The notes below the pieces were generated by a model that saw nothing but the letters and a program-made list of their open reading frames with translations, was not told the origin of the DNA and ran no database searches. A stretch of 64,000 nt of DNA from Candidatus Gottesmanbacteria bacterium (GTDB taxonomy: Bacteria > Patescibacteriota > Microgenomatia > UBA10105 > UBA927), in assembly GCA_023245355.1 (NCBI GenBank), contig JAHFKN010000001.1, positions 75,528 to 139,527 of the forward strand, in the 5' to 3' direction. Below are positions 22,240 through 41,044 of the stretch, piece after piece; the first letter of the stretch is position 1, and the number at the start of each line of letters is the position of its first letter. Position numbers and translations under genes: made by a program.

Positions 22240-22293
22240 ATCTGTATTGTACCTCTGCGCTGCAGGCCGATGCTATGGTATAATTTTTGTATC

Positions 22294-22383: not shown

Positions 22384-22390
22384 AGTACGT

Positions 22391-22780
22391 ATGGCAGAAA
22401 TACAAACCACTCCGGAAACAGATAAACCGAATCCCGTAAGTCTGCGTGAATATCACCTTATGGATCGGCACGAGCGCAAAGCATTTTTAGGGAAACTTAC
22501 GAATGCGGAAAAGAAAGATTTACGGTTATCTGCCATCGTTGCGATGGAATCGAAGCCGAGAAGCGAACGCAGGGAATTGGCTCGCGAATTCGTAGCAAAG
22601 TTGGAAAAACGTGAGAGCCCCTCTGTTGCGGACAGAGTAGAGCTTCTGCTTGCGAAAAAAGAAGTTCTTCGGCTCACTATTCCTGAGAAACCTGCGATAT
22701 TTTTGCGCAAGCTCCGTTCAAAGGCTTTCCCCCGGTGGATACGGGAAGCGCATAGCCCCTTCCTTATAACCGGCCGGTAG
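22391..22780 (+). CDS. Hypothetical basic protein (129 aa) at the island edge
   Basis: ORF beginning MAEIQTTPE. The longer ORF-track start overlaps the tRNA and is rejected. G+C is host-like. Confidence 0.35.
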   Translation: MAEIQTTPETDKPNPVSLREYHLMDRHERKAFLGKLTNAEKKDLRLSAIVAMESKPRSERRELAREFVAKLEKRESPSVADRVELLLAKKEVLRLTIPEKPAIFLRKLRSKAFPRWIREAHSPFLITGR

Positions 22781-22964
22781 ATTAAAGACGTGCTTTCGCC
22801 TTAAGAATTAAGCAGTATTGAAGAATACTGAGGAGTAGAAATGTAAGCGTAATAATGTGCACCATCTGGGACGATGTTAGAACCTATCTAACCTCCTCTA
22901 TTGATCCAAAAGAGAAAGCTAGTCTCATCATTTCCATCGCTCATTTTAAGAAGGAGGGAAAACA

Positions 22965-23486
22965 ATGAGTTACAATTCGTCCTATATGGGCTCTCAATCT
23001 AACTCTCGCCAGACTGCAAATGCTATTTTAGCAGATGAAAACTCCTTTTACTATCGATTCGAGCGTGATTTGGATCAGGCAAAACACGAGGTAATCATTG
23101 AAAGCCCATTTATCACTGTTCCAAAGCTACGAAATTTGAAGCATGCCTTTGAGTCCTTAATGGAGCGCAAAATAGCAGTGTTTGTCATAACTCGGCACCC
23201 AGAAGAGCATGAATCGTTCATGGCCGAACAAGCTGAGGCAGGAATTCAGTTTTTTGAAAAAATAGGTGTACAAGTGTTTATGAGCAAGACTCACCATAGG
23301 AAATTAGCCATGATTGACCGTAAGATCGTCTGGAAAGGCAGTCTTAACATTCTGTCACACAAGAATAGCCGCGAACTTATGGAGCGCGAGGATGACGAGA
23401 AGAAAGCTAAAGACCTGTTTTCCTTTCTCAAATATGATCATGTCAGTGAAATACAAAATATTTGTTATACTAAGGAGGAAATATGA
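22965..23486 (+). CDS. Single-HKD phospholipase-D-family nuclease (Nuc-like)
   Basis: HHRKLAMIDRKIVWKGSLN is a perfect match to HxKxxxxDx6GSxN. At 173 aa the size is typical of Nuc/NucT-type dimeric nucleases. Confidence 0.75.
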   Translation: MSYNSSYMGSQSNSRQTANAILADENSFYYRFERDLDQAKHEVIIESPFITVPKLRNLKHAFESLMERKIAVFVITRHPEEHESFMAEQAEAGIQFFEKIGVQVFMSKTHHRKLAMIDRKIVWKGSLNILSHKNSRELMEREDDEKKAKDLFSFLKYDHVSEIQNICYTKEEI

Positions 23487-23713
23487 ACGATACAGTAACC
23501 AAAAAGTCAGAACTAGTCATTGATGCGCTCCAATATGCGCACGATCACAATTTGGATATCAGCAACATAATTGATGTACAGAAAATACTCGATGTTCTTG
23601 ACCCTGAGCACAAAGAAAATGCCTCTGAGTTTGCTGAGCTTCTCAAAACCTCAGATACTTTTATGGGCATGAAAGCTCGTGATTTGAAATCCGAAGACAA
23701 ATTACCCAATTAA
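23483..23713 (+). CDS. Small acidic protein (76 aa) translationally coupled (ATGA overlap) to the PLD nuclease
   Basis: The start overlaps the upstream stop. The sequence is Asp/Glu-rich. Confidence 0.35.
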   Translation: MNDTVTKKSELVIDALQYAHDHNLDISNIIDVQKILDVLDPEHKENASEFAELLKTSDTFMGMKARDLKSEDKLPN

Positions 23714-24006
23714 CTAGTTATTTTCTCGTCGATAATTGCTTGGCACCGTGATTTTGCATAATCCCTCGCATGAAAGGCACATGATTTATCATCACATTTG
23801 ATGAATGGATCATCACCAAACCCAATATAGGATTCATACAACTGTTCTGCATTCATTTTTGGTTGGTATGAGCTTTTCAGGCAGTCATCAACAATCTTCT
23901 TGCAGGCAACAATCGCTTCCTCACAGGTGTCATATTCACCATGCATATACCTCTCGCTCTCGTCCATGAAGTGAAAGTTATCATCAACAAATACTTGGTA
24001 TGTCAT
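23710..24006 (-). CDS. Small Cys-rich protein (98 aa), last gene of the ATPase-NERD operon
   Basis: Cys-containing segments CEEAIVACKK...DDC...KCDDKSCAFH. It overlaps the NERD gene stop by 4 nt. Confidence 0.35.
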   Translation of the reverse strand: MTYQVFVDDNFHFMDESERYMHGEYDTCEEAIVACKKIVDDCLKSSYQPKMNAEQLYESYIGFGDDPFIKCDDKSCAFHARDYAKSRCQAIIDEKITS

Positions 24007-24722
24007 ATTGCTTTTGTGTATGTAGCTTTTACTATATCGACTATACGCTGATCTGGATAGCTTCGAGGCTCGCTAGTAATCATTTTAATTAGCCAACGAT
24101 ACTGAATAACTCGAACGTTTTTAATTGGCTGAATACCGAATCGAACAATGGCGAAGCGATGGGAAAAGACAATGATTGGAATCACAAATGCGCTGGAGAT
24201 GCCTGAGCCCATCAAATGATCATGTAGAGAGGTGGCTTCTCGCATGGCTTGGCGCAGAAAGTCTTTCTCAAATGATTTTTGATTTAGAGTAAGTTCGTCA
24301 CCATTAAATCCAACTGTCCCGTGGTGATTCTTGACCTCTATAGCGTGAATCCCTGTTGGTCCTACAACCACAAAATCAATATTTTCTTTCTTACCAGGGA
24401 CATGGACATCTTCAAATACGGTATAGTTAGCATCCAGTTTTTTTAATTCATCGCCGATAAGCATCTCTCCGACGATACCGCTCCGAAATTTATACATTAG
24501 CGATTCTTCTTTTCTCATGAGTGAGTCAGTTACAAGCAGAAGTGGTCCAAATACCAGAGTGATTGCAAAGACTGCAGGTAACGAGAAAGAAGCGATAGAC
24601 AATCTCCAGATCACTATACCTATGATGATGGTGAAGTAAATTAAGTAGGCTAATGCGCCGTATTTACTTATGGTCTTATTTGCATTGAGATATCGACTGG
24701 GATGACCATAAATTACTGCCAT
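24003..24722 (-). CDS. Membrane-anchored NERD (nuclease-related domain) protein
   Basis: Two N-terminal TM helices. NIDFVVVGPTGIHAIEVKNHHG matches the NERD core ([DE]-x-D-h-h-h-x-x-x-G-h-x-h-h-E-x-K). Confidence 0.55.
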   Translation of the reverse strand: MAVIYGHPSRYLNANKTISKYGALAYLIYFTIIIGIVIWRLSIASFSLPAVFAITLVFGPLLLVTDSLMRKEESLMYKFRSGIVGEMLIGDELKKLDANYTVFEDVHVPGKKENIDFVVVGPTGIHAIEVKNHHGTVGFNGDELTLNQKSFEKDFLRQAMREATSLHDHLMGSGISSAFVIPIIVFSHRFAIVRFGIQPIKNVRVIQYRWLIKMITSEPRSYPDQRIVDIVKATYTKAI

Positions 24723-24729
24723 AACATAT

Positions 24730-26973
24730 TTATATAATTTCTATGACTTCGAAGAAATCCCTAATAATACCTCTTAAGTCTCCCACAGAGAAACTATCAC
24801 GCTTAACTTGTGAATCAGAATCGTCATGGTTCCAAAAATGTGCGGATAACGAGTTTATTTTTTGCGCTTTGTCACCATCATATGTACCATCAGAAGTTAG
24901 TTTTTTAACAAAAGATGAAGTACTTCCACCATCCGCAATTTCAGTTTTAAGGCGTAGGTAATATTTTCGCTTAAAAAGTTGTTCAAGCACATCCCTAATC
25001 GATCTAAGTTTTTCCCAATTTACTTCAGTATCTGGTGCGGATTCTAAAGCTTTTAGTTCTTCAATCTGACGATAATATGTATCTAAGTATTCCTCGTTAG
25101 GTAGCATCAATTCTAAAGTAGAGGTACTAGTTGAAGGATTGTAGACAATTTTGAAACTTTTATGTTGAGGGATATGCTCATTAAGAAGTGCGAAGAATGA
25201 CTGTTCATGTGTAAGGATAATCAATTGTTGGGGTTTTGATTTGGTAATAAATTTATTTAGAAGTATAACTGTTCTTAGTTTTCTTTCGGCATCAAGACTG
25301 GACAAAGGATCATCTAATACGATTATTTTATCTTGAATATTGGCCTGAGCTTTAAGACTAGCAATAAAGAATGCAAAAGCTAGCAATCTTTTATCGCTTT
25401 CGCTTAAAGTATTTCCAAAGTGTTGAACCTCGTCGTGATCTGCCGAGAGTGCTATTTTATGGCCCGAAAAACATATTCCAAAAAGTGGAGCAGTGCTTCT
25501 TATTCCAGATTTTGGTTTTGTATCCACAAGTTGGAAATCGGCTTGCAGCTCTTTCAAAATACTGTTTACTTCTGTTTCATAGGTAGCAAAAATACTCTCG
25601 GCGTATTTGCTTTTAGCCTGCAAAGAAGTGTCTCTAATATTTGTTAGTTCTTTCGTTTTTTGATCCAATACTTCGTATTCAATACAAAAATCTGTCCAGA
25701 GTTTTTCGCCACGTTGTTTTGTTAACTCTAATACTGACTTTTCATTAGATAAAGTTTGATGTTTATTTTTGTCGTAAGGACTAGAATATTCAGCTTGGAG
25801 CAATATAACTTTCCCCTTTACCTTTTTTAAAGCAGATAATATTTTTTGAAGGGAATCAAAATTTATTGCATAATCCAAATTACTTTTAGATGAAAGTTCT
25901 TTCTTAAATAATGATATATTGTCATTGATTTCTGTGATTTCAGAGTTGAAATCGACCTGAATTCCCATAGCGGAAAGTTCACCGGAATATCGCCTAAGCT
26001 CTGCCTCGATTTTCCATGAAATTAGATGGTTGGATGCTTCTTTAACAGAATTAATTAGTTGCTTATAAGACTCGCTAAACATTGTTTCATAAGTCTCAAT
26101 CAAGGACTTTGCGTCATTGACGATAGGTTGACCACAAAATACGCAATGTCGTGTTTTTTCAGATTTGTCAGAGTCTTTAAGTAGAAATGTGCCTTGCGCA
26201 AGAAATCGCTCGGCACCATCATCCGATCGCAGGTGACTTAATATATGTGTTTTAATCTCTTCTTGATGAAATGAAATTGTTGGCGACAATTTCGGCTCCA
26301 AACTTTCAAGGCTATCAGAATTAATAGCCTTTATAAGTTCGTCAAGTTTATCTTTTACGTTCTGATATTGACTGTAGGCCTTAATTTCATTTTCTTTCTG
26401 AGTTATTTTATTATCAATATCTGAATCAGGATCAATTTTCCTAAAGGAATCAAAGCTGACTTTATAATGTCCTAAATGTCGAGTGTATTCTCGTGTAATT
26501 TCGGCCTTACGATTGGCATTCTTTTGACACTCTAGTTCTGCGTCTGAAAAATCCTTTTCTAATTTTTTGCCTTCCTCCCCAAGAATAATTGTTTGGATTG
26601 ATTTTTCGTTATCCGCTGTTATTGATTCATGTAGATACACATTTTTTGCTACGAATCTTGTGTCAAAAACTGTGATATTTGGACAACTTGTATTCCAAGC
26701 GCCAGTATTAAACGTGTGTGTGGTCGTTGATTTATCGTCACCAGTATTTATATTTACAGATTGTTCGTCTGTTGCTCCGAATGTTTTCCGGCCAACAATG
26801 TAGCATGGATCATTTGTGCTTAATGAGGTTAGTATGGCAGTTAGAGTGCTTTTGCCTTTTGCGTTAGGTCCGAAGAAGAATGTATTTGGTGCAAAATTAT
26901 ATTCACTACCTTTACCCATCGAACAAGCTCTAAGTTTTCCTACATTCTTGATATTTAGAATTTTTTTAATCAT
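24730..26973 (-). CDS. RloC/AAA_13-like ABC-type ATPase with coiled-coil CxxC zinc-hook (747 aa); no recognisable C-terminal nuclease domain
   Basis: Walker A is FFFGPNAKGKSTLT near the N-terminus. A long coiled-coil insert carries HCVFCGQP (CxxC). Walker B/D-loop is IIVLDDPLSSLD and the H-loop is IILTHEQSF. This layout matches SMC/Rad50/RloC-type ABC ATPases. Confidence 0.55.
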   Translation of the reverse strand: MIKKILNIKNVGKLRACSMGKGSEYNFAPNTFFFGPNAKGKSTLTAILTSLSTNDPCYIVGRKTFGATDEQSVNINTGDDKSTTTHTFNTGAWNTSCPNITVFDTRFVAKNVYLHESITADNEKSIQTIILGEEGKKLEKDFSDAELECQKNANRKAEITREYTRHLGHYKVSFDSFRKIDPDSDIDNKITQKENEIKAYSQYQNVKDKLDELIKAINSDSLESLEPKLSPTISFHQEEIKTHILSHLRSDDGAERFLAQGTFLLKDSDKSEKTRHCVFCGQPIVNDAKSLIETYETMFSESYKQLINSVKEASNHLISWKIEAELRRYSGELSAMGIQVDFNSEITEINDNISLFKKELSSKSNLDYAINFDSLQKILSALKKVKGKVILLQAEYSSPYDKNKHQTLSNEKSVLELTKQRGEKLWTDFCIEYEVLDQKTKELTNIRDTSLQAKSKYAESIFATYETEVNSILKELQADFQLVDTKPKSGIRSTAPLFGICFSGHKIALSADHDEVQHFGNTLSESDKRLLAFAFFIASLKAQANIQDKIIVLDDPLSSLDAERKLRTVILLNKFITKSKPQQLIILTHEQSFFALLNEHIPQHKSFKIVYNPSTSTSTLELMLPNEEYLDTYYRQIEELKALESAPDTEVNWEKLRSIRDVLEQLFKRKYYLRLKTEIADGGSTSSFVKKLTSDGTYDGDKAQKINSLSAHFWNHDDSDSQVKRDSFSVGDLRGIIRDFFEVIEII

Positions 26974-27023
26974 ATTTCTAATTAAGGCGATTTTATCACT
27001 TTATCAGGCATAAGTGCTCAAAA

Positions 27024-27635
27024 TTATATCTTAGGTAAAAATACTCTCGGATTTACTGGTATTCCATATATTCTTGTTTCAAAGTGTAAGTGTGGTCCGG
27101 TTGCCCAGCCTGTTTGCCCCTCTTTCCCAATGGTGTCGGTAATAGTTACTTTCTGCCCTTTGTAGACGTAGATTTTGTCTAGATGAGCATAGATGGTAGT
27201 GATGTTGTTTCCATGGTCGATGATAACGTGTTTACCATACCCCCAGAATATCTCTCCAGCATAGGCAACTTCGCCATCCATCGCGGGGTTTATGGGATCG
27301 CCAATTTGTCCAGAGGGGTTGGCAATATCAATACCTGTGTGAAAGACCTGATACAAGCTAGACTGGCCAAATTCGAGGGTAATGACTCCGTGAACCGGCC
27401 ACACTACTTGTGGAGATATGGATTTAACAACTTCCCCGGAGGTTGGATCTTTGATCTCGATGGACTGCGTAACAGGATTACTTTCAACCAACTTGTCTGA
27501 GATTATGTTTATACCAACTCGAGTGAGTAGAATTATCCCGATAACTGGAACCATGAGGATAGCTAGAAAGGCTAAAAAGACAAATTTCAATTCCTTACGA
27601 AATGACCAGAGAGTAAGGAAGAGTTTTGGATTCAT
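27024..27635 (-). CDS. M23-family metallopeptidase (cell-wall hydrolase of the T4SS operon), N-terminal TM
   Basis: HTGIDIA...GYGKHVIIDHGNNITTIYAHL...GPHLHFE contains the HxxxD and HxH M23 zinc motifs. Confidence 0.8.
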   Translation of the reverse strand: MNPKLFLTLWSFRKELKFVFLAFLAILMVPVIGIILLTRVGINIISDKLVESNPVTQSIEIKDPTSGEVVKSISPQVVWPVHGVITLEFGQSSLYQVFHTGIDIANPSGQIGDPINPAMDGEVAYAGEIFWGYGKHVIIDHGNNITTIYAHLDKIYVYKGQKVTITDTIGKEGQTGWATGPHLHFETRIYGIPVNPRVFLPKI

Positions 27636-27637
27636 AC

Positions 27638-29422
27638 TTAGATGTAGATTTCCCGAGGATCGGTCGTGAGGAGTGGCTGTTCTTCTTCAGAGGCTACTAC
27701 TTTAACTGCAACATGGTTTTGATCAGCTATGATGAGAGCCTCACCCCGTTCACAAGTTAAAAGATAATGCTGTTCAAAGGCAGAAAGATGGAATTCTTCA
27801 GCCACTTTTTTGATGGTGGTAGTATCTTGGCGCATAAGTATACGAAGTGATGATTGACTGGCAATGGCCTTGCCATATTCCTGTGAGAGGAAATCATTGG
27901 CTTGTTGCGTGATGATTGTGACACCCAGATAGTATTTTCTGGCGCGTCTGACGAGCCCTGAGATAAATCTGGCGCTTTCTGGCTCTTGGAGGAGTATCCA
28001 GCCCTCGTCAATAACAAGCATGCGTTTTTGTGGATTCTGCTTGACCTCGCTATGCACGAAATTAGCCACAACCATCATCATGATCTGACGAAGTGACTCA
28101 TTTAAGTCTTTAATATCAAACACAACGAGGCGATTATTCATCTCGATATTGGTCTGGGAATCAAATACTCCGCCAAGCGAACCTTTCACAAATCTCTCGA
28201 GTCGGTTGCAGAGGTCTTTGTGTTTCATTGTCTTCAGTTCTTTGTAAAAATCTTTAAGCACTGGATAGGCAATCTTTGCGGGCTTCTTGCCATTCTTACG
28301 CTTGCTCAGACCTGAATTTTTATAAGTTTGTAGAAGCGCACGATCCACCGTTGCCCGCTCCTCCGATGTCAGACTGCCAACCATGAGAGAAATGAGCTCT
28401 GTAAGGTCTTGTATGTGCTCAGCGAGGCTATTCTCACCCGTGACTGAGCTTTGGTAATCAAAAGGGTTAATTTTTTCCTTGGAGGTGCTAGAGAGCTTGA
28501 TGTACGTTCCGTTGACGCTTTTAGCCAGTTGCTTATATTCGCGTTCTGGATCAATGACTATGACTTTTGTACCTTGCATGAGGTGACGCAGGATCTCGAC
28601 TTTGGCAGTAAAGCTCTTGCCTGAACCGGACTGGGCAAAAATAATCGAATTGGCGTTGTTTAGACTATAACGATCGATGATAACCAAAGAATTATTGGAT
28701 TTATTGATTCCATAGAGGATACCGGACTCTTGGACGAGTTCGGATGAGACAAAGGGAAAGGTTAAAGCAGCGCTTGAGCTATCCAAGTTACGTTTTTGTG
28801 CCAGCTTGTTTTCGCCACGAGGCAACATTGATTGCAACGCTTCGATTTGTTGGAAAGTTGCAGGTTTTATATAGAAAAGTCTTGTCTGCATGACTGTTTC
28901 CAATAGCTTAGTTACTTTATCAAGTTCAACTAGACTTTCAGCCGTAACGGTCATGTAAATAGAAACTTGGAACAGTTTTTCCATACCCCGCTGGATTTTG
29001 TCTTTGAGTTCCATGGCTGATTCAAGCGGATCAGTGATTTCACTTCCGATAACACGTCCCTCTTTAAGCATGGTGCGCTTGGTGGACTCAAGCTCTGTGA
29101 TTTTACGGTTAAGTTTGGGCAGTGCTATGAGAGGATCGATCTGCTCGATGTGATAATTGATGTCGATATTGTGGTTAAAGTTCACGAGCATTGAAAGCCA
29201 GCCAGTCGAAGCCACATAGGGATACCCTGAAACAAAGAGTGTTCGGACGAAGGTATCGTTTATTTGTAAATAGCTCGATTCCTCTTTAAGTCCGGCATAG
29301 GAAATAAGGTCGAGTTGGTCTTGTTCGCCAAACGTGACGTTGATAGCTTGGTGGGCTAAGCGTTTTTTCTTTTGACGCTTTTGCCAGTCACGAATTGGTT
29401 TGATTTTGGTTAGGTTAAACAT
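27638..29422 (-). CDS. VirB4-family conjugative transfer ATPase (TcpF/PrgJ/Orf16-like)
   Basis: Walker A is FAQSGSGKSF. VIDPEREY follows. The DUF87-like layout matches Gram-positive VirB4 homologues. Walker B is RMLVIDEGW. Confidence 0.75.
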   Translation of the reverse strand: MFNLTKIKPIRDWQKRQKKKRLAHQAINVTFGEQDQLDLISYAGLKEESSYLQINDTFVRTLFVSGYPYVASTGWLSMLVNFNHNIDINYHIEQIDPLIALPKLNRKITELESTKRTMLKEGRVIGSEITDPLESAMELKDKIQRGMEKLFQVSIYMTVTAESLVELDKVTKLLETVMQTRLFYIKPATFQQIEALQSMLPRGENKLAQKRNLDSSSAALTFPFVSSELVQESGILYGINKSNNSLVIIDRYSLNNANSIIFAQSGSGKSFTAKVEILRHLMQGTKVIVIDPEREYKQLAKSVNGTYIKLSSTSKEKINPFDYQSSVTGENSLAEHIQDLTELISLMVGSLTSEERATVDRALLQTYKNSGLSKRKNGKKPAKIAYPVLKDFYKELKTMKHKDLCNRLERFVKGSLGGVFDSQTNIEMNNRLVVFDIKDLNESLRQIMMMVVANFVHSEVKQNPQKRMLVIDEGWILLQEPESARFISGLVRRARKYYLGVTIITQQANDFLSQEYGKAIASQSSLRILMRQDTTTIKKVAEEFHLSAFEQHYLLTCERGEALIIADQNHVAVKVVASEEEQPLLTTDPREIYI

Positions 29423-30032
29423 AATTGTGTTTGAATAATGCGGATAATGCTTCTTTTGTAATCGCCTGGGTCTTTACCGATTCAGGGTTATAAAAGCTGT
29501 AGAACAAGTTAATAATCTCGATACTTGAGAGTGTTTTAGCTTTCATCTGCATCCGCTCCAAGCCTTTGACGACAATATCGCGATTTAGATTTAAGTGTTC
29601 TTTGATTACTTTCCAATCTTCGTGCCGGTCTGGGTGATGATATGGCAATACGATGTAAAATCGTCTTGAGAGAATACTGTTACCTGAGACGAGCTTTTTA
29701 ACGAATGCACTATATCCCTCGATTTGCTTGCGATAGATCGGATCTTTCTCTTTGTCCTTTGATCTAGCCACATCTTCAGCGTATTTGTCGATATCAATCT
29801 CTCGAACTCGTACCAAGATTTGAATCTGGCAAGGTAAGGCATTTAGGAAGTTTTGGAAACTATCGATCATGACGTCCTGTTCTTCTTCACTCTTGAGCTC
29901 GAAGTTTATGGATGAGGTTTCCAAAATCAACCGATATTCCTGGTTAGGCAAAACCAGAACATTATCCAAGACTTTTTTGATTTGTATTTGCTGTCGCGAT
30001 GATAGAGATTTATTGAATAATGTCATAGTCAT
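29415..30032 (-). CDS. Hypothetical T4SS-operon protein (205 aa)
   Basis: Overlaps the virB4-like start. No motif recognised. Confidence 0.3.
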   Translation of the reverse strand: MTMTLFNKSLSSRQQIQIKKVLDNVLVLPNQEYRLILETSSINFELKSEEEQDVMIDSFQNFLNALPCQIQILVRVREIDIDKYAEDVARSKDKEKDPIYRKQIEGYSAFVKKLVSGNSILSRRFYIVLPYHHPDRHEDWKVIKEHLNLNRDIVVKGLERMQMKAKTLSSIEIINLFYSFYNPESVKTQAITKEALSALFKHNYV

Positions 30033-31773: not shown

Positions 31774-31801
31774 ATTTGTTCATATTCCAATATTGGCCGA
31801 C

Positions 31802-32137: not shown

Positions 32138-32190
32138 AACCTACCTCCATATAAATTACTAATTTATAAATATTAGGCAGGTCTGGTTAC

Positions 32191-32220
32191 AAAAAAGCCC
32201 CTATCTGGAGGGGCAGCTCT
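32191..32220 (-). terminator. Hairpin (GCCCCT-atctgg-AGGGGC) followed on the minus strand by TTTTTT; rho-independent terminator-like, about 60 nt upstream of the pilin-like gene
   Basis: Read directly from the sequence. A-run on the plus strand and T-run on the minus strand. Confidence 0.4.
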
Positions 32221-32338
32221 GTTGAACTTGAGGGAATTATTATCCTAACCAGGCTAAATGTCAACTAGATGTAGTCAGATAATTAACAGTTTGTGACAAA
32301 CCTAGAAAGTAAACCCTATCGGACATATAATAAGCTAT

Positions 32339-33727: not shown

Positions 33728-33848
33728 TTTTCCACTTGGATATTTAGGGGCCTTGCCCCTCATTTCGCAAGGGTTTTCGTTTCACTCCAATAAACTGCGC
33801 TTCGCTTGCCCTTGCAAAATTCACCCCGCTTTAAAAATTCTCAGGTAT

Positions 33849-33870
33849 GGGAAGTATGGCCATACTTCCC
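33849..33870. promoter_or_regulatory. 22-bp perfect palindrome gggaagtatgg|ccatacttccc, 45 bp upstream of ORF 33915
   Basis: Exact 11+11 inverted repeat with no spacer. Confidence 0.5.
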
Positions 33871-33914
33871 AACCATTAATTTTCGGGAAGAAGCCAAGAA
33901 GGAGGTGAAAACCT

Positions 33915-34229
33915 ATGAAACTATTAACAAAAGAGCTTATCAAAAGATTTGAGCAAGTCGGCAGACAGGAAGACTCTAGCGATCCTCTCGTTATTGTAAA
34001 GTTCTTCAACCCTTGTGGAGCAGGTACATGGTACGCAACCGAGTACGATCCAGAATCGAGAGAGTTTTTCGGATTCGTTTCAATCTTTGGGGATTGGAAT
34101 GACGAATGGGGATCTTTTTCTCTGGATGAACTCGAAAACTATCACGGCAACTTTGGATTAGGGATTGAGCGGGATCTGTATTTTGACGAGCAGCGAATAA
34201 GTCAGGTTGTCCCAAAAGCAAAATTATAA
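33915..34229 (+). CDS. Hypothetical small protein (104 aa)
   Basis: The RBS aaggaggtg lies 8 nt upstream. The sequence is acidic. Confidence 0.35.
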   Translation: MKLLTKELIKRFEQVGRQEDSSDPLVIVKFFNPCGAGTWYATEYDPESREFFGFVSIFGDWNDEWGSFSLDELENYHGNFGLGIERDLYFDEQRISQVVPKAKL

Positions 34230-34291
34230 ATATATAGTATCCACCGCGGGGCCCCAACCCCGCGGATGGGTATCCAAGAAAGGAAAAATAT

Positions 34292-34495
34292 ATGATTAGA
34301 ATATTACCAGTATTTAAAGGTTATACAGTCGATTTACGACTGCAAGAGTTTAGAAAAATTGAAATGGATACGCTACCCGAGTTTATCCCGCTATTAAGTG
34401 ATAAAGGGGCTCGACTGTTTAATGAGTTTAGACAAACAGAAGAAGGCAGAAAAGAAATTGCTTACGTACTTGGGAGGCGCCTAGGCGAATACTAG
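34292..34495 (+). CDS. Hypothetical small protein (67 aa)
   Basis: The RBS aaggaaa lies upstream. Weak call. Confidence 0.25.
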   Translation: MIRILPVFKGYTVDLRLQEFRKIEMDTLPEFIPLLSDKGARLFNEFRQTEEGRKEIAYVLGRRLGEY

Positions 34496-34518
34496 CTTAA
34501 AAGGTCTATAATAAAGGC

Positions 34519-35016
34519 ATGATCAAGAAGATAGTGATATTGGTCGTGTTTTTATTCTTGGCTGGGAGTGGTTATTATTTTTTCACAAAGCCAAACGAAG
34601 AAAATTTCAAAGCGCCAGGGAAAGATTGGGAATCAGCCAAAAAGGTAGAAGATTATTTTATTGAACGCCTGCATATGCCAGTTGCTGAGGCCGAGCAGAT
34701 TAGATCGAAGCCAGGAGTAGACGGAACAGCAGATTTACGAATTAGTACAGAAGTTACTCTCGACGCTCTTATAGGAAATCTTTACTATTACGGCTTTGTA
34801 CGAGATGAAAAAGCGTTCAGGTATGCGCTAGAACACACCAAGGACACCACGCCAAGCGATAAGGCTATCAAAGTCGGCAAGGACGGTACGATTGACACCA
34901 ACGCAGAATATAGAATTTCAGAAAGCATGAGCGCGTGGGAGTTGGCAGATTTACTACTCAATAAACCTGAGGGACATTTTCCATTTGATGAATATAACTA
35001 TTTCTTTATGCCGTAG
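34519..35016 (+). CDS. Membrane-anchored hypothetical protein (165 aa)
   Basis: N-terminal TM helix (IVILVVFLFLAGSGYYFF). Confidence 0.35.
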   Translation: MIKKIVILVVFLFLAGSGYYFFTKPNEENFKAPGKDWESAKKVEDYFIERLHMPVAEAEQIRSKPGVDGTADLRISTEVTLDALIGNLYYYGFVRDEKAFRYALEHTKDTTPSDKAIKVGKDGTIDTNAEYRISESMSAWELADLLLNKPEGHFPFDEYNYFFMP

Positions 35017-35790
35017 TTATTCATCTTCAGCTTCCACTTTTTCCCAATGACCTGAAAATGCACCCTCTCTAGTTGCAAGGTATATAGCTACTTGATCAAG
35101 CGGTGTTTCTTCATAAATACGGGCTATATGTTTCTTTAAGTAGATCATGCTGCCGTATCCAGGGCAGATAAAAAGTATGGCCGGAAATGGATGGTTAGTC
35201 GCCTCCTCAAATTTTCCGTCATCGATATAATCACAGTACTCTTGGACTCGCTTGCGCAAGGCAAACCGAGGCGAGCTATCTTCAACTACTTCAACAAAGT
35301 ATCTTTTTGTATTGCCAGCAATATCTACCCGAGCAAAATAGGCATCGGGTAATGGGTGAGGCATGTAGGGGTGTGCCAGTAGATCTGTTTTGGTAAAGAA
35401 ATGGAGTGTGTGCTTGGTTTTTTCTGATTCTTGGCTTAGATGTAAGAAGTACTCTGCTAAAAATGAGGTATGAGCGATAAATTGTTGAGATCTGATTTTC
35501 TCTCTGTAGATTCGTTTCAAGGCTCGTTTATCGATATTATCTTGTTGTTCTAATATCTGGATACTTCCTGACGTTAGATAATAGACTGCTGGGAGATTAG
35601 CTAAGCCTAGTGATCGTGTGTAATGTTTGCCAATGTAATTTTTTGAAGTGAGTAGTTGTAAGTGGTAGTTAGTCAGGCGGATAGTTTTGTGAATAAGTAG
35701 TTTTTGAAGTTGTAGACTGGTTAAGAAGCGAAAGCGATAGAGATAGTGAAGAATGTTGAGTTGTAGAGCGGATAGTTTTTGATTGTCCAT
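35017..35790 (-). CDS. Replication-relaxation (Replic_Relax)-family-like protein; candidate DNA-processing (relaxase-like) factor
   Basis: The N-terminus LSALQLNILHYLYRFRFLTSLQLQKLL resembles the Replic_Relax N-terminal wHTH motif found in Gram-positive conjugative elements. Confidence 0.4.
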   Translation of the reverse strand: MDNQKLSALQLNILHYLYRFRFLTSLQLQKLLIHKTIRLTNYHLQLLTSKNYIGKHYTRSLGLANLPAVYYLTSGSIQILEQQDNIDKRALKRIYREKIRSQQFIAHTSFLAEYFLHLSQESEKTKHTLHFFTKTDLLAHPYMPHPLPDAYFARVDIAGNTKRYFVEVVEDSSPRFALRKRVQEYCDYIDDGKFEEATNHPFPAILFICPGYGSMIYLKKHIARIYEETPLDQVAIYLATREGAFSGHWEKVEAEDE

Positions 35791-35912
35791 AGTATGTGTA
35801 GAGCAGAATCTGGAATGATTGTATCATTCCTCTCCCTTATATATAAGGAATAAGGGGTAAAAGTAAAAGTTAAAAAGGTCTATTTATCGGGCTAAACTAA
35901 AAATCATATTTT

Positions 35913-35924
35913 CCTACCGGTAGG
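35913..35924. promoter_or_regulatory. 12-bp perfect palindrome cctaccggtagg immediately downstream of the coupling-protein stop
   Basis: Read from the sequence. Confidence 0.35.
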
Positions 35925-35929
35925 TAAAG

Positions 35930-38521
35930 TTATGGCACTGTAGAATAGATCTTTTGTGTAGCTTGATTAGTAGTTTTTTTGACTGGTATTTGTTTATCTG
36001 GAGTGTAGAACTTGGCATACAATTTTCTCGACGATTCAACAACCTCATTAACCCTATTCTGACTGTATTCGATTTGTACTGGAACGGTAACACCTGAAAA
36101 TGGTTCTTCTGGGTTAAGTGCTCCAAGCCTCATGTAAAAGTGATATGAGGGAAGGCTCGCGATTTCACCCTGTTCGATGTATGGCCTGAATTGTGGCAAG
36201 ATCATCCGTTCATCCTCAGGGTTAGCTGTTCTAAAGCAAATTACTGTACCCGTATTAGCTAGGGTGATATTTACGAGTGAAACATCCTCAAGTTGTGAGG
36301 TGGTTTGGTGAGCCAAGATAGCGCCAAGTCGATATTTTCGCGCCTCTGAGAGGATTTGGGCAAACGCTGGGGTAGCAAAGTTTTGGAACTCATCAACGTA
36401 CAGGAAGAAGTCTTTTCTTTCTTCCTGCTTCATCCTGGCTCTCTTTAAGGCTGCCAACTGAATCTTGGCCATGATAAGTACTCCAAAAACTTCTGAGTTG
36501 TCTTCTCCAATCTTGCCTTTTGAGAGATTACATAAGAGTATTTTCCCTTCATTCATGATGGTATCGAAGTTTACGGTTGATTTACCTTGCTCAAGTATTC
36601 GCTTGGCTGTCGGGGAAAACAGGAAACGACCGATCTTATTGGTTATAGGAGAAATCATTTTCACTTTTTGATAATCACCCGCTTTGGCAAATTCAAACTT
36701 CCAGAAATCGTTAAGATTCTCATCTGTCAGGTTTTTGGTAACAGATTTTCGGTAGCTCGTGTTAATGAGTAGTTTGTAAACCGTAAACAAGGTAGCATCT
36801 GGGACGGTAAAGGCGGTATGGATAGTATTTCTCAAGATGTATTCCATTCTTGGCCCTGAGTATTTATCTGTGTAGATTTTATGGAAGACCGAGATAATAC
36901 TTTCTGCTATAAATTCTTTTTCTCTGATAGCATCTTCAGGATTTAACCCTGGAGTTAGTTCAAGAAGATTGATACCCATAGGATAGCTAATGTCATCTGG
37001 ATTAAAGTAGACTACATCCTTGATCCTCTCACGAGGTATTACAGACAATATCTGCTCAATCAGATCACCGTGCGGGTCAATCACCGATAACCCTTTGTTA
37101 TGATCAATATCTTGCTTAATCATCGATAGCAACATCGTGGACTTTCCTGTGCCGGTAGCTCCAAGAATATACACATGGCGCCGTCTTTCGTCAGCGGTTA
37201 ACCCTATTTTAGTCTCAGTGCCACCATAGGTATTTGTCCCAAAGTACAAATCACTTTCTTGTTTCTGCTTAAGTGATAATGGAGCGGGCAATTCTTTACT
37301 GTGTTGCTTGAGCAAATCCTCAGTCTTAGTCGTACTGGTATAGGGAAAGTGATAGAGATCTGATACCTCAGTGGCCGAGAGAATAAATGATCTAGTTAGT
37401 AGAAAAAACCTCAAGTTGTAAAGTGATTCCATTATTCGATCAAATATCTTTACTCTGATCCGAAATGACGGAATGAGTGCCTGGTACTCCGAATTATTAA
37501 GCGCGGAAAGTGCAGATTGAAAACCTCGTTCCCGTTTTCTAAGTTCACTATAATTATTGCTTGCTACCATGAGCCGTACAGATGCCGAGAATAACTGTTG
37601 ATCTAATTTATTCTTTACCAGTTGTTCCAGTTCCATCTGATACGGGTTTGGTGTTTTGAGTGGTTCGATATCGGTTGGAAGCCGTAGCATCGGACCTTCT
37701 CTGCCATCTGTTGTGATAAAGACTAATAATCCAAATGGAAGCATCAGTATACGAAGTATTAAACCGAAGAGCATTTTAAATAAGACTACAACTGGATTTG
37801 AGCTTGCATCATTGCCCAAGTTTGAAACAATATCTTTACCTGAGTAAATAAGATGAGAGATACGCGAAACGTCAGGAAGTGAAGATTTACGCAGAGGCGA
37901 TAATACGACCTGAAATGCAGTTAGATCATCATCACTTAACTTAGTCATACTTCCTGTTAGGTATGCTATTGGATCATGGCTGGCTAAATCCTCTTGGTGT
38001 TTTAGTGGGTATGCAAAGTGTCGTGAAAGTCTATAACTAGATATTCGTTTATGTTGCTTAGTAAGTAACTCCAGATAATCAGTCGTTTCTTTTACACTGA
38101 TTCCGGGTAGATAGGATAAGAGGGTTTTCTTAACTAAGTCAGCTTCATCTTCCCCAATTCTTGTGTAATAGGTTATTCCGCCATTCTTCGTCGAAACTAT
38201 CTCAAAAGAATAGGTTTTTTGGATATCAAATAAACGGTTGATAAATGATCGTTGTCTGGCGAGCCCATGCAGAATGGCAAATAATTGCTGAGTTGTATAT
38301 GAAGACTGTTCTGTATTTTTGAGAGGTTTAATCTCAAAAAGGATACTTTTCTCTTTTAATTGTTTAATGAAAAGATATACGCGAAATATCTGAAAACAGA
38401 CATATATGAGCACCAAAGCCAGTAAAACTATCTTGAGCGGAGTAATAAAGGGACTAAATGAAGTGAGGAACGAAGTTAAATACGTAGCTAGAGTTTGTTG
38501 TATGGAAGTTATATTTGGCAT
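35930..38521 (-). CDS. Type IV coupling protein (VirD4/TraG/FtsK-like ATPase), 2 N-terminal TM helices
   Basis: Walker A is HVYILGATGTGKST. Walker B is FFLYVDEFQNF. The N-terminal TM segments are characteristic of T4CPs. Confidence 0.75.
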   Translation of the reverse strand: MPNITSIQQTLATYLTSFLTSFSPFITPLKIVLLALVLIYVCFQIFRVYLFIKQLKEKSILFEIKPLKNTEQSSYTTQQLFAILHGLARQRSFINRLFDIQKTYSFEIVSTKNGGITYYTRIGEDEADLVKKTLLSYLPGISVKETTDYLELLTKQHKRISSYRLSRHFAYPLKHQEDLASHDPIAYLTGSMTKLSDDDLTAFQVVLSPLRKSSLPDVSRISHLIYSGKDIVSNLGNDASSNPVVVLFKMLFGLILRILMLPFGLLVFITTDGREGPMLRLPTDIEPLKTPNPYQMELEQLVKNKLDQQLFSASVRLMVASNNYSELRKRERGFQSALSALNNSEYQALIPSFRIRVKIFDRIMESLYNLRFFLLTRSFILSATEVSDLYHFPYTSTTKTEDLLKQHSKELPAPLSLKQKQESDLYFGTNTYGGTETKIGLTADERRRHVYILGATGTGKSTMLLSMIKQDIDHNKGLSVIDPHGDLIEQILSVIPRERIKDVVYFNPDDISYPMGINLLELTPGLNPEDAIREKEFIAESIISVFHKIYTDKYSGPRMEYILRNTIHTAFTVPDATLFTVYKLLINTSYRKSVTKNLTDENLNDFWKFEFAKAGDYQKVKMISPITNKIGRFLFSPTAKRILEQGKSTVNFDTIMNEGKILLCNLSKGKIGEDNSEVFGVLIMAKIQLAALKRARMKQEERKDFFLYVDEFQNFATPAFAQILSEARKYRLGAILAHQTTSQLEDVSLVNITLANTGTVICFRTANPEDERMILPQFRPYIEQGEIASLPSYHFYMRLGALNPEEPFSGVTVPVQIEYSQNRVNEVVESSRKLYAKFYTPDKQIPVKKTTNQATQKIYSTVP

Positions 38522-38586
38522 AATCCGACCTTAATAGGCAGGATTTAGTTGAGAGTATACAGGAAGTTGCCGTTGTGAGCAAAAGC

Positions 38587-38811
38587 TTAAAACGGTAGGA
38601 CTTGGGATGATTTAATCTTGAGCGCCTTGCAAATACTTTCGATCACTGAAAAAGTAGGGTTTTCTTCTCCTCGTTCAATGCCAGCATAGTGGGTTGTAGA
38701 AATTTTACTCAGTACCGCAACCTCTTCTTGTGAAAGTTTTTTATCCTCCCGAACAGAGCGCAGGTTTTTACCGAACGCTTTCTGGCTTTTTTCATCTGGC
38801 AACATATTCAT
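38587..38811 (-). CDS. XRE-family helix-turn-helix transcriptional regulator (74 aa)
   Basis: LSQEEVAVLSKISTTHYAGIERGEENPTFSVIESICKAL is a classic HTH_3. Confidence 0.7.
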   Translation of the reverse strand: MNMLPDEKSQKAFGKNLRSVREDKKLSQEEVAVLSKISTTHYAGIERGEENPTFSVIESICKALKIKSSQVLPF

Positions 38812-38899
38812 AATCGTAGTATATCACTCGCAATTTGACGGTAGTTTATCAAAGAACTCTCATTTCTTCAAGTTATAGGACATAGTTTGAGCCTAAATA

Positions 38900-38990
38900 T
38901 CCTCTGTAACTATAATTATAATTTAGCCTTGAAATATGCTTGACAACTACAACTATAATTGCTATTCTGTAACTATAGTTGTAGTTTATT
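38900..38990. promoter_or_regulatory. Operator/promoter region between divergent XRE gene and recombinase operon: 13-bp inverted repeat aactacaactata/tatagttgtagtt (38945-38957 / 38974-38986) plus direct repeat tctgtaactata (38903-38914, 38966-38977) and TTGACA box
   Basis: Read directly from the sequence. Confidence 0.5.
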
Positions 38991-39003
38991 TAAGAGTACA
39001 GCC

Positions 39004-39213
39004 ATGATAAGTAAAGAGTATTTAGATAAGTTTAAGAAGCTATATAAGGACAAATATGACATTACTCTCACAGATGAGGAGGCAACTGAATTGGCAAACC
39101 ATTTTCTCAACATGATGGAAGTGCTTATCAAGCCTAAACAAAAACGTTCGCGCAGCATACAGAATAACAATGTGTCTGAGGAAAGGAGTACCTATGCGAC
39201 TGACAGACTATAA
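39004..39213 (+). CDS. Small protein (69 aa) upstream of and overlapping the recombinase start; candidate accessory/recombination-directionality factor
   Basis: MISKEYLDKFKKLYKDKYDITLTDEEATELANHF... Position only. Confidence 0.3.
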   Translation: MISKEYLDKFKKLYKDKYDITLTDEEATELANHFLNMMEVLIKPKQKRSRSIQNNNVSEERSTYATDRL

Positions 39214-40828
39214 AAACCACAATAATACTAAGCTTCCTGCGTCTCCACGTTACATGATGTATTGCCGCAAAAGCAGTGAATCCGATGAGCGCCAGATTCA
39301 ATCATTACCAGATCAGATAACAAACTTGACTGCACTCATTAAACAAAGAGGTGTTGAACTTGTTGGCGAGCCATTACAAGAGCAGCGAACCGCAAAAATG
39401 CCGGGTAGACCGGTATTTGGAAAGCTTGTACAAATGATCGAGGATGGGGAGGTAAATACCATCGTGTTGCTTAATCCATCCCGCTTATCTAGAAATACCG
39501 TAGATACTGGTCGAATTATCTATCTCATGGATCAAGGAAAGTTGCTTGAAGTCGTTACTCCGTATCAATCGTTTCGTAATAATCCAAGCGATAAATTCAT
39601 GCTTAACCTGCTTTGTACGCAAGCTAAGCTCGAGAATGATAATAAAAGCGTCAATGTTACCGAAGCACTAAAGCTTAAAGCTGAACGCGGAGTGTTCCCA
39701 GGCAAAGCAAGGCCAGGATATAGAAATAATCATGAAAAACCTCAAGGACTACGAGATATCTCGCCACATCCCGTATATTTTCCACTTATGAGAAAGCTCT
39801 TTGACTTAGCTCTAACTGGCAACTACAGCGTTGAAGCTCTCATGCGGGAGGCCAAAATCCTTGGCATACGAAGTACCAAGTCTGGCAAACCGATTGTGAA
39901 AAGTTGGATGCATCGAATACTGCGAGACCCGTTCTATACCGGTCGGTTTATCTATAACAGCAAGCTCTATCAAGGACAGCATCAAGCCATGCTTACCGAC
40001 GCTGAGTTTAACTTGCTTCAAGATATATTGGACGGCAGATCCAAAGCCAGACTCCAAAAACATGATTTTGCACTCAATGGCATTATGAAGTGTGGAGAGT
40101 GTCATTATTGTATTACCGCTCAAGAGCATAAGAAAAAATACAAAAACGGCACAGAGCAGGTATTCGGTTACTATAACTGTACGAAGAAAGGAAATAACAA
40201 GTGCTCACAACCGTTTGTATCCACTTCCAAACTCGAAGGACAGTTTTCAAGTGATCTATCACACTTTGAGATTGAGGATAAAGAGTTTATAGATTGGGCA
40301 TATGAAGCACTCGAAGAAACCAGAGACAAGTATCATGAAGTCAATAAAACCAGCTCAGAAGCCCTCCAAACGGCTTTAGACGGTGTGAATCGCCGGATCG
40401 ATAATCTTATTGCCCTCAAAATTTCTCCTGAGAATGACGGAAGCCTCTTATCTGACTCAGAGTTTGGTGATAGAAAACGCGAACTCATGATGGAAAAGGA
40501 ACAAATTACAAGACAGTTGGCACTAGCAAATGCAAATGGTGACGAGTGGTCTGATGTTGCTAAAGACTCTTTTGAATTTGCGTTACTAGCTAAAGAACGA
40601 TTTGAAACCGGTGACTCTGAAGACAAAAAAGTGATATTCAAGGCAATCGGCTTGAACCCGATCTTACTAGATCAAAAACTGGAATATCAGCCTAGATTTG
40701 TCTTTATGAAGATGAAAGAGGTTGCGGAAACTATGAACGGCGGAAATGACCCGCTCGAACCCAAAAAAAGCCCGTCAGATCGCGAAAATCTGAAAAATTA
40801 TTTAAAAAGTACTGTATTGTGCGGGTGA
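39194..40828 (+). CDS. Large serine recombinase (phage-integrase-type resolvase/invertase family)
   Basis: YCRKSSESDERQIQSLPDQ holds the catalytic Ser in the resolvase N-domain. PSRLSRN follows. The recombinase domain has a zinc ribbon CGECHYC...YYNCTKK. A C-terminal coiled coil is present. The stop codon tga at 40826-40828 lies inside the tRNA-Leu(GAG) acceptor stem. Confidence 0.9.
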   Translation: MRLTDYKNHNNTKLPASPRYMMYCRKSSESDERQIQSLPDQITNLTALIKQRGVELVGEPLQEQRTAKMPGRPVFGKLVQMIEDGEVNTIVLLNPSRLSRNTVDTGRIIYLMDQGKLLEVVTPYQSFRNNPSDKFMLNLLCTQAKLENDNKSVNVTEALKLKAERGVFPGKARPGYRNNHEKPQGLRDISPHPVYFPLMRKLFDLALTGNYSVEALMREAKILGIRSTKSGKPIVKSWMHRILRDPFYTGRFIYNSKLYQGQHQAMLTDAEFNLLQDILDGRSKARLQKHDFALNGIMKCGECHYCITAQEHKKKYKNGTEQVFGYYNCTKKGNNKCSQPFVSTSKLEGQFSSDLSHFEIEDKEFIDWAYEALEETRDKYHEVNKTSSEALQTALDGVNRRIDNLIALKISPENDGSLLSDSEFGDRKRELMMEKEQITRQLALANANGDEWSDVAKDSFEFALLAKERFETGDSEDKKVIFKAIGLNPILLDQKLEYQPRFVFMKMKEVAETMNGGNDPLEPKKSPSDRENLKNYLKSTVLCG

Positions 40829-40901
40829 GAGGACTTGAACCTCTAAGCCTTACGGCACAGCCTCCTCAAGACTGCGTGTCTACCAGTTTCACCACACCCG
40901 C
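40820..40901 (-). tRNA. tRNA-Leu(GAG)
   Basis: GCGGGTG TG GTG AAACTGGTAG ACAC G CAGTC TTGAGGA GGCTG TGCCGTAAGGCTT AGAGG TTCAAGT CCTCT CACCCGC A. Confidence 0.8.
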
Positions 40902-41044
40902 GTCATGTCAGGTCATTATTATACCAAAAAATGTCTCCGGCGTAGAGAAGAAGTTCTTTTCCTTTTTAACCGACTCGAATGTCTTCATTCAGTTGAAACG
41001 AAAATACTGTACGTTGTTTTATGGATGTTTGATATAGTGTATGT

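Follow-up and report, generated by a model that had tools for sequence, protein, structure and literature searches.

A probable integrative and conjugative element in a Microgenomates-type bacterium, with a predicted attP inside its serine recombinase gene

The operon layout of type IV secretion systems (T4SSs) in Patescibacteria, with a TrsD protein and with peptidases encoded downstream of virB4, has already been described (Quinonero-Coronel et al. 2025, PMC12102498). Relaxases were rare in that survey (109 in 103 genomes); MOB_C was the commonest class and was often found near the coupling-protein gene t4cp, 39 relaxase genes in all were close to t4cp, and most of the systems were concluded to be co-opted, a view also taken in PMC12857230. 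We describe here a locus with the same genes in the same order, at positions 22857-40818 of a 64,000-nucleotide stretch of contig JAHFKN010000001.1 (the window). The loci of the Patescibacteria clade, which are related to monoderm MPF_FATA systems, are described as chromosomal, mostly without a relaxase and probably co-opted (PMC12102498), whereas the operon in the window lies in a delimited, strain-variable element of 17,962 bp with a recombinase, a putative relaxase, a T4SS coupling protein (T4CP) and attachment (att) sites, and its host is Microgenomates-like rather than a member of Saccharimonadia. The same gene set and order is found in the T4SS locus of Southlakia epibionticum (Wang et al. 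2023), as far as that locus is presented in PMC12102498. We conclude that the element is probably an integrative conjugative element (ICE), acquired in one step by a Microgenomates-type bacterium belonging to the Candidate Phyla Radiation (CPR).

A first, sequence-only reading of the window had proposed a self-contained ICE and knew of no well-characterised conjugative elements in ultra-small CPR/Saccharibacteria-like genomes. Because T4SS loci of Patescibacteria, including a minority with MOB_C near t4cp, were surveyed in 2025, the field is not empty, although a limited literature search found no delimited ICE with four att sites in a CPR genome. The same limited search found no serine integrase with attP in its own gene. 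For the transfer genes, a parallel exists in streptococcal integrative and mobilizable elements (IMEs), which combine VirD4, MOB_C and a serine integrase, and CONJscan scores PF13814 proteins as MOB_C (PMC5357655). IME_Class_8 (Coluzzi et al. 2017, PMC5357655) resembles our element in its compact module, in which a VirD4-type coupling protein is combined with a PF13814 protein (MOB_C) and a serine integrase, but it is mobilizable only and lacks a T4SS, whereas the element here has its own; the two are unrelated in sequence and in target site.

SPbeta SprA/YokA and other phage large serine integrases share with the recombinase of the element the catalytic, recombinase and zinc-ribbon domains, the coiled coil and the absence of a duplication at the crossover; unlike them, the enzyme here has an extra C-terminal helical module, apparently interrupted by attP, and targets a tRNA terminus. 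Large serine recombinases also serve ICEs and conjugative transposons of Firmicutes, such as Tn5397 (TndX) and Tn4451 (TnpX), and circularisation of Tn4451 and Tn916 alters expression across the joint. With Tn5397, Tn4451 and the CTn2/CD1110-type MPF_FATA systems, our element has in common a large serine recombinase, the presumed driver of excision and integration, and a monoderm-type T4SS. Identity to these elements is low, however, and the element has VirB2-like pilins, a tRNA 3' target, and a joint that would complete the recombinase coding sequence rather than a promoter. In the archaeal integrases of SSV1 type, attP lies inside the int gene and integration at a tRNA gene splits int. An att site within the integrase reading frame and a tRNA target are thus shared, so that the gene differs between the integrated and free states. 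The SSV integrases are tyrosine recombinases of archaeal viruses that are split into two large parts, whereas the bacterial serine recombinase here would lose its last 36 residues only.

The ends of the element can be placed to the base. On the left, eleven elements share sequence from GTGCACCATCTGG onward, and an alignment of the DNA beyond their PLD-like nuclease genes shows unrelated host DNA before that point; since the shared sequence stops exactly at 22857, we place the element at 22857-40818. On the right, the elements of the window and of three related contigs (L022, L023 and L025) conserve ...AAAAAGT(A/T)CTGTAT and then pass into host-specific tRNA sequence. The attL junction (22852-22861) has the overlap TGTGC at 22856-22860, with G22857 as the first base of the element, and the attR junction (40814-40823) has the same overlap at 40818-40822; TGTGC is the sole sequence common to attB, attL and attR. 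Insertion is exactly at the 3' terminus of a single gene, tRNA-Leu(GAG) (40819-40901, minus strand; called by ARAGORN and Rfam), which is intact, is 100% identical to its copies in two contigs that lack the element (L007 and L112, below), and has no duplication. In the window and three other elements (five further loci), the opposite strand carries a tRNA-Leu 3' end ~1,624 nt away from the start of the recombinase gene. L023 has tRNA-Leu(TAG) as its target; in the window, L022 and L025 it is tRNA-Leu(GAG). The acceptor stems of these tRNAs are host-specific and self-consistent, and the tRNAs are therefore intact host genes. We searched for long direct repeats at the island ends and found none, and no displaced tRNA 3' fragment was seen either at the window's left end or, for L022, L023 and L025, over 10 kb upstream of the recombinase gene. 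This is as expected of a serine recombinase.

An empty site in related genomes, to which the sequence-only reading had looked as a test, was found in a near-identical strain. Contig L112, a JGI contig recovered by an exact-protein look-up with a 129-residue host open reading frame (ORF), orf129, is 98.9% identical to window 21165-22860 (19 differences in 1,696 nt) and then passes directly into tRNA-Leu(GAG). The whole 18 kb is missing from it as one piece, and its joint, ...TAATAA|TGTGC|GGGTGAG (in longer form ...GCGTAATAA|TGTGC|GGGTGAGAGG), corresponds to the attB that attL and attR predict. The element is also absent from this site in L007, a more distant relative (UvrA 86% identical) whose sequence is collinear with both flanks; there the two tRNA-Leu genes are on the same strand, 88 bp apart. 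From the two ends we predict the sites attP = AAAAAGTACTGTATTGTGCACCATCTGGGACGATG and attB = AAGCGTAATAATGTGCGGGTGAGAGGACTTG, and joining the right to the left end gives a predicted circular junction of ...AAAAAGTACTGTAT TGTGC ACCATCTGGGACG...; relatives with G at the fifth position would have the palindrome ATGGTGCACCAT within the joined attP. We considered a recombinase-driven inversion of the element together with tRNA-Leu(GAG), relative to the arrangement in L007 and L025, and dropped it, as the native empty order in L112 is tRNA-Leu(CAG) on plus, orf129 on plus and tRNA-Leu(GAG) on minus. The Logan contig L006 (sample SRR14366796) ends exactly at 22856, the last base common to attL and the predicted attP, and contigs L002 and L003, which cross attR, end at 40855, inside the tRNA. 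We rejected L006 as evidence for a circular form, because L003 of the same sample reads through attR and the signal is ambiguous; its end point does hint at junction polymorphism in that sample.

Base composition agrees with these limits. G+C is 39.9% within the element and 49% in the flanks; over 22384-40818 the fraction is 0.401, against 0.494 in the left and 0.489 in the right flank. Tetranucleotide distance to the flank background is about doubled (3.3-4.3 within 24-40 kb, 1.4-2.6 outside), and G+C at third codon positions is 0.26-0.47 in island genes and 0.47-0.57 in host genes. The earlier reading was thus correct that the segment is AT-richer than its surroundings, and the limits it gave, 22384-40901, need revision: the low-G+C segment and the conserved element end both start at 22857, 473 bp inside 22384. 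Its picture of an island wedged between two tRNA-Leu genes is half right, in that tRNA-Leu(GAG) is the target. The other gene, tRNA-Leu(CAG) (22294-22383, plus strand; ARAGORN and Rfam), is a host gene and not a boundary, and orf129 (22391-22780, G+C 47-51%) is likewise classed as host DNA. An Rfam search of 20-44 kb returned tRNAs only. On the other side, a CmpB-like membrane protein gene (PF06541; window 40902-41722, 41.5% G+C), 5' of tRNA-Leu(GAG), is absent at that position in L007 and L022; judged by the conserved ends it does not belong to the ICE, and it may be foreign DNA of an older date.

The recombinase gene occupies the right end (39194-40828, plus strand) and abuts the junction in every copy examined. 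Its 544-residue integrated form matches Resolvase, Recombinase and Zn_ribbon_recom above cut-off (all Pfam matches were judged against the curated cut-offs) and carries the catalytic motif YCRKSSES, and an AlphaFold model of the homologue P0106 (mean pLDDT 73.6) has long paired helices at residues 365-447 after the zinc ribbon; these features bear out the large serine recombinase with catalytic serine, zinc ribbon and coiled coil that had been read from the sequence. The protein matches the SPbeta integrase 9dxh over its N-terminal ~360 residues only (E = 8e-10), and phage homologues are distant (20-25% identity). It has >1,400 homologues, the best 120 of which are 59-93% identical and carry labels of Microgenomates type and one of Saccharimonadales. 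By exact look-up, the 544-residue form is on record and a 552-residue form from an upstream ATG (39170) is not. As had been noticed, the stop codon is inside tRNA-Leu(GAG): the TGA at 40826-40828 sits 10 nt within the tRNA 3' end, and the last two codons and the stop are read from antisense tRNA. In the window and three other elements, the recombinase ORF extends 10-185 nt into the antisense tRNA.

At the opposite end of the element, window 22858-22968 (plus strand) holds an orphan coding segment of 36 codons, CTIWDDVRTYLTSSIDPKEKASLIISIAHFKKEGKQ, followed by TGA, which is in the recombinase frame only across the circular junction. Its frame (108 nt, 22858-22965) is open in 11 of 11 elements and closes with the same TGA in each, stops abound in the other two frames, and pairwise differences are distributed 314/174/541 by codon position. 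No start codon is conserved ahead of the segment, since the DNA upstream is host DNA. In the window, the junction happens to make an ATG (host AT plus element G; 22855-22968), so gene callers predict a 37-residue ORF (as in L111, 6465-6578); a start codon is missing at this point from most other elements. By these comparisons attP is predicted to lie inside the recombinase gene, with excision restoring a conserved 36-residue C-terminal tail and integration swapping in residues read from antisense tRNA. The combination of an attB at a tRNA terminus with an attP that would split off a conserved recombinase tail is an unusual design.

Two natural relatives in which the gene runs through the predicted attP confirm the joint. 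In the relic P0121 (loci L107-L109, from three JGI samples), the last 420 nt of the recombinase gene pass through attP into the left end and the start of the PLD gene. P0106, on L110, is an unsplit recombinase of 579 residues that ends ...KSSLWC|TIWDETRTYSTSRIDSKEKTALLEAIEYFTKEV and lies within a decayed element. Among the best 120 homologues, 58 end in ...KSS(V/L/I)WC followed by a recognisable translation of antisense tRNA (EDLNLH...) and ~30 more stop one or two residues past ...WC; several more distant homologues have tails of DSNPH type after variant motifs. Integration at tRNA 3' ends therefore looks like a rule of the family. In the P0106 model the crossover falls mid-helix (residues 530-559), ahead of a last helix at 562-578, so that integration would take off half of one helix and the entire next. 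The decayed element on L110 has an insertion sequence with an rve transposase (4819-6995) within its coupling-protein gene, and its unsplit recombinase gene, which is retained, is followed by a gene for a PIN-domain toxin.

The T4SS is encoded by six minus-strand genes at 27024-32137 that overlap or abut. In the direction of transcription they begin with a VirB2-like pilin (31802-32137; T4SS_pilin E = 1.8e-10, TrbC E = 1.9e-8) with a signal peptide and two transmembrane (TM) segments. A VirB6-like protein (30496-31773) follows, with a pilin domain at residues 29-97 (T4SS_pilin E = 1.6e-12) and a polytopic region, seven hydrophobic segments in all; T4SS_pilin/TrbC is above cut-off in two proteins. 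The PrgI/VirB3-like protein (30029-30499) is a two-TM hairpin at a conserved position. The next gene (29415-30032; 205 residues) had been called an unknown ORF; its product is probably TrsD-like, as is typical of T4SS loci of Patescibacteria. It resembles the VirB4 N-terminal domain, lies between PrgI and VirB4, is conserved in 72 of 80 loci identified by a VirB4-based scan of metagenome contigs, and has a weak TraC_F_IV match (E = 0.0036) alongside a precomputed weak TraC-like match. VirB4 (27638-29422; P-loop_TraG, AAA_10, DUF87) finds its best solved structure in 4ag5, VirB4 of Thermoanaerobacter (E = 4e-46; TrwK, E = 4e-4), and its best plasmid matches in Firmicutes and Actinobacteria, of the CD1110 family, with a top identity of 36.5%. 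By sequence it appears closest to VirB4 proteins of monoderms (FATA). The operon ends with a membrane-anchored M23 peptidase (27024-27635; Peptidase_M23 E = 5e-29; one N-terminal TM segment, HTGID and HLH motifs), the presumed wall hydrolase, which follows VirB4 in 74 of the 80 loci. The earlier reading had thought this peptidase distinctive, which it is not, as a peptidase downstream of virB4 is already described in Patescibacteria (PMC12102498). Its six-gene layout and its assignments of pilin, VirB4 and M23 stand.

The genes for DNA processing lie elsewhere on the island, as first read, and both exceed their Pfam cut-offs. A Replic_Relax protein (35017-35790, minus strand; PF13814, 49.3 bits against a cut-off of 25.3) is a putative relaxase of MOB_C class. 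The VirD4-type T4CP (35930-38521, minus strand) matches TrwB_AAD_bind, TraG-D_C and T4SS-DNA_transf, has an N-terminal DUF8128 and two TM segments, matches TrwB 1e9r, and has the Walker A motif GATGTGKS. VirB4, T4CP and serine recombinase are thus all supported by domain searches above cut-off. Beside the relaxase gene are genes for a DUF2958 protein (33915-34229; DUF2958 E = 9e-20), a 67-residue ORF (34292-34495) and a 165-residue membrane-anchored ORF (34519-35016), all on the plus strand; the genes of 33915-35016 keep this position in L022, L023, L025, L044, L051 and L055. Ahead of them is a structured non-coding block (33743-33914, plus strand), at which backbone homology to three other elements starts. 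It is better conserved than the adjacent genes and contains two hairpins with compensatory changes and an invariant long-range stem; it has no Rfam match. The block may be the origin of transfer (oriT) or another single-strand signal, or alternatively a structured leader RNA of the DUF2958 operon.

The synteny of related contigs ties these modules together. Gene order around the 80 VirB4 loci, mapped by tblastn, is T4CP, Replic_Relax and DUF2958; a variable region of 1 to >7 kb; pilin, VirB6-like, PrgI, TrsD, VirB4 and M23; cargo; and (XRE) and PLD. Of ~22 loci that reach far enough, 9-11 have the core module upstream of the pilin gene, and L040, L044, L050, L051, L055/57/58, L096 and L101 show synteny of the T4SS operon with T4CP, Replic_Relax and DUF2958; in L050 the host locus is as in the window (PLD, an orf129-like gene, tRNA-Leu(CAG) and RsmF). 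The PLD gene lies beyond M23 at the far end in 35 of the 80 loci. On this comparative evidence the T4SS belongs to the element and not to a separate island. Flanks past the PLD end differ by host and often contain other tRNA genes of an array; core DNA of the window and L022 is 90% identical, against 70% for the adjacent host gene Ddl; and the core stays at ~40% G+C in the window, L022, L023 and L025 despite flanks of 43-51%. These are signatures of horizontal spread. Both tRNA-Leu(GAG) and tRNA-Leu(TAG) are among the targets, and tRNA-like sequences of other kinds are read into by more distant members of the family. The element family is widespread but undescribed in Microgenomates-type CPR bacteria. 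The proposal of a self-contained ICE is supported by the domain searches, by the exact junctions, by the site left empty in a near-identical strain and by the synteny conserved across many contigs.

The host had been described as a CPR-like, Saccharibacteria-like genome. The first part agrees with our results and the second does not: UvrA has its nearest named relatives in Patescibacteria group (87%), Woesebacteria (75%) and Gottesmanbacteria (73%), and cluster-mates of VirB4 and the relaxase are labelled Shapirobacteria and those of the recombinase Woesebacteria. Judged from these protein relatives, the host is evidently a Microgenomates-type CPR bacterium, not a Saccharibacterium.

Several observations weigh against the interpretation as an ICE. 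The PrgI match (20.9 bits, cut-off 27) and the TrsD assignment are below threshold, so that the VirB3-like label first given to the former is provisional; no VirB6 or PrgH family match was found for 30496-31773, which is named for its topology and position; and no VirB8-like protein was identified. A scan of viral_contigs with the attP sequence gave no match, and we found no attP or full-length recombinase from this exact strain. Past the 5' end of tRNA-Leu(GAG) (1776-2305), the empty-site contig L112 has a second tRNA-Leu(CAG) and an RsmF-like gene only ~55% identical to that of the window. This part may be a chimera formed through the 83-nt identical tRNA, or a different arrangement; the attB joint itself is unaffected, since a 5-nt overlap is too short to yield it as an assembly artefact. 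Finally, homologous T4SSs of Saccharibacteria are essential for epibiotic growth and are thought to be non-conjugative (PMC12102498, PMC12857230), and the T4SS of the element could therefore serve host interaction instead of, or besides, transfer. The element would then be a mobile host-interaction island, with a T4SS used mainly for epibiosis (contact, uptake, effector delivery) and a relaxase and T4CP that are rarely used or vestigial. This explanation, which is compatible with an ICE, seems to us rather unlikely. In its favour, the operon has the layout described for Patescibacteria loci on which growth on hosts depends and in which relaxases are mostly lacking, and conservation of VirB4 and its neighbours is very strong (74-96% identity) over many habitats. 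Against it, the T4SS shares its element with an intact relaxase homologue, the coupling protein and the recombinase, and the element is absent from the conspecific L112 and from the L007 site; an essential function is not expected to vary between strains unless the genome holds a second copy.

A recently integrated ICE that had lost the ability to excise or transfer would fit the negative outcome of the viral_contigs scan for attP. The integrated recombinase does lack its native 36-residue tail, and decayed copies exist elsewhere (L110 with its interrupted T4CP gene, and the relic L107). All ORFs of the element are intact, however, with catalytic motifs present; strains with and without it differ by just 1.1% over the 1.7-kb flank; and the orphan tail is under coding-type constraint in 11 elements, which implies that the circular form must keep being produced and used. 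We consider a defective remnant improbable. A composite of two adjacent elements, a ~7-kb mobilizable unit at 33743-40818 and an independent T4SS/defence island at 22.9-33.7 kb, is very improbable. It would account for the sharp start of homology to L022, L023 and L025 at ~33743, and for the lack of VirB4 within the available 2-5 kb upstream of DUF2958 in these three. Yet the segment that would complete the recombinase (22858-22965) lies beyond the T4SS and the cargo, L112 lacks all 18 kb in one piece, and 9-11 other contigs show the T4SS operon and the core in synteny, separated by 1 to >7 kb of variable DNA; position 33743 is therefore a boundary between backbone and cargo. We accordingly rejected the 7-kb core (33743-40818) as the true mobile unit, once synteny had been mapped, the left ends aligned and the empty site identified. 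A large serine recombinase with an XRE switch is also a typical prophage module, and distant recombinase matches occur in phage genomes, but none of the ORFs of 22.8-40.8 kb has a capsid, tail, portal or terminase domain in Pfam, and a full set of T4SS, coupling protein and relaxase is present instead; we attach almost no probability to a prophage or phage-derived island.

As an ICE, the element could have the following life cycle. In the integrated state, the XRE regulator would repress a divergent operon of small ORF and recombinase, and the recombinase would be the 544-residue form with its host-encoded end. Upon induction, the recombinase, perhaps with a 69-residue ORF as directionality factor, would join attL and attR into a circle with attP (...CTGTATTGTGCACCATCTGG...). 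The circular junction would restore a 578-residue recombinase with the conserved 36-residue helical tail and would bring the PLD nuclease gene, which has no promoter, into a position immediately after the recombinase gene (ATGA overlap). The MOB_C-type Replic_Relax protein would then nick oriT, for which the hairpin block 33743-33914 is the candidate, and the VirD4-type coupling protein would deliver the DNA to the Patescibacteria-type T4SS, composed of two VirB2-like pilins, VirB6-like, PrgI/VirB3-like and TrsD-like proteins, VirB4 and the M23 wall hydrolase. In the recipient, the full-length recombinase would insert the element at a tRNA-Leu 3' end. Conjugative transfer, the oriT, and the roles of tail and small ORF are what we infer from sequence. 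Because the recombinase gene spans attP, the enzyme would sense its own state. We tentatively propose, as a possibility that we hold to be short of even chances, that excision rebuilds a 578-residue form with a two-helix tail and switches on PLD, that integration cuts the tail mid-helix, that the two forms differ in directionality or stability, and that the T4SS is still conjugative in Microgenomates.

CPR bacteria are largely uncultivated and genetically intractable, and the element makes the question of whether a Patescibacteria T4SS moves DNA directly testable. If the proposal is true, a pilus-bearing T4SS of Patescibacteria type is still a working conjugation machine in Microgenomates, and a serine integrase has a built-in switch between integration and excision. 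The layout with attP in the gene suggests that directionality and expression of the neighbouring nuclease may be coupled to the integration state. The 40-50 bp attP/attB pair at a tRNA-Leu terminus, the two natural recombinase forms and the candidate oriT could also be tried as a genetic tool, to bring DNA into Microgenomates and integrate it there.

The remaining genes of the element are regulators, left-end genes and cargo. An XRE-family regulator (38587-38811, minus strand; HTH_3 E = 6.8e-12), strongly conserved across elements, is divergent from the recombinase across a spacer with three operator-like repeats, AACTATA(A/G)TT(A/G)TA (38903-38988; direct repeat family D6, inverted repeat I25), confirming the divergent repressor and repeat-rich spacer of the first reading. 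The 69-residue ORF (39004-39213, plus strand) overlaps the recombinase start and is called in all copies; its N-terminal ~45 residues are conserved across elements, it has no family match, and it is a candidate accessory or directionality factor. At the left end, the conserved gene for a PLD/Nuc-like nuclease (22965-23486, plus strand; PLDc_2 E = 1.9e-9) is matched in PADLOC by the PLD portions of MkoC and DrmC, and its start overlaps the TGA of the orphan segment (ATGA). The only element DNA upstream of it is the orphan segment, and it is therefore probably expressed from the circular form only. A 76-residue ORF (23483-23713, plus strand), with no family match, is next to PLD in nine loci by tblastn.

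The cargo at 23710-26973, which varies between related elements, comprises three minus-strand genes, for a 98-residue ORF (23710-24006), a NERD nuclease (24003-24722; NERD E = 5.8e-17) and an AAA_13 ATPase (24730-26973; AAA_13 E = 7.3e-25), the last with a match to the candidate defence system PDC-S06 (E = 1.2e-56). In the variable region between T4SS operon and core, a 462-residue ORF (32339-33727, plus strand) has no Pfam or PADLOC match; it is absent from L022, L023 and L025, which have other cargo in its place. Beside the core in L025 (1-5018) and L026, the cargo is a diversity-generating retroelement with RVT_1, bAvd, Bro-N and a 1,540-residue FGE-sulfatase-like target.

Some further observations concern tRNA genes near the locus and in relatives. 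Window 10736-10774 (minus strand), which lies 28 nt downstream of tRNA-Leu(TAG) (10804-10886), is a 39-nt copy, 95% identical with two changes, of the 3' half of tRNA-Leu(GAG), with the variable arm, the T-arm and the acceptor strand represented; it may be the relic of an older insertion or a tRNA duplication. In L007 (9548-9569, 9674-9756), a 22-nt direct repeat of the 3' end of tRNA-Leu(GAG) lies ~105 bp downstream of the tRNA and resembles the scar left at this tRNA by an element that makes duplications, for instance one with a tyrosine integrase. The 5' end of tRNA-Leu(TAA) and the DNA just upstream of it contain two tandem 55-nt units with 78% identity (family D1; window 21120-21229). A related Microgenomates contig has, in its host flank, a tRNA that ARAGORN assigns the anticodon CTA ('tRNA-Pyl', of amber-suppressor type; L025 19663-19737, L026 14715-14789).

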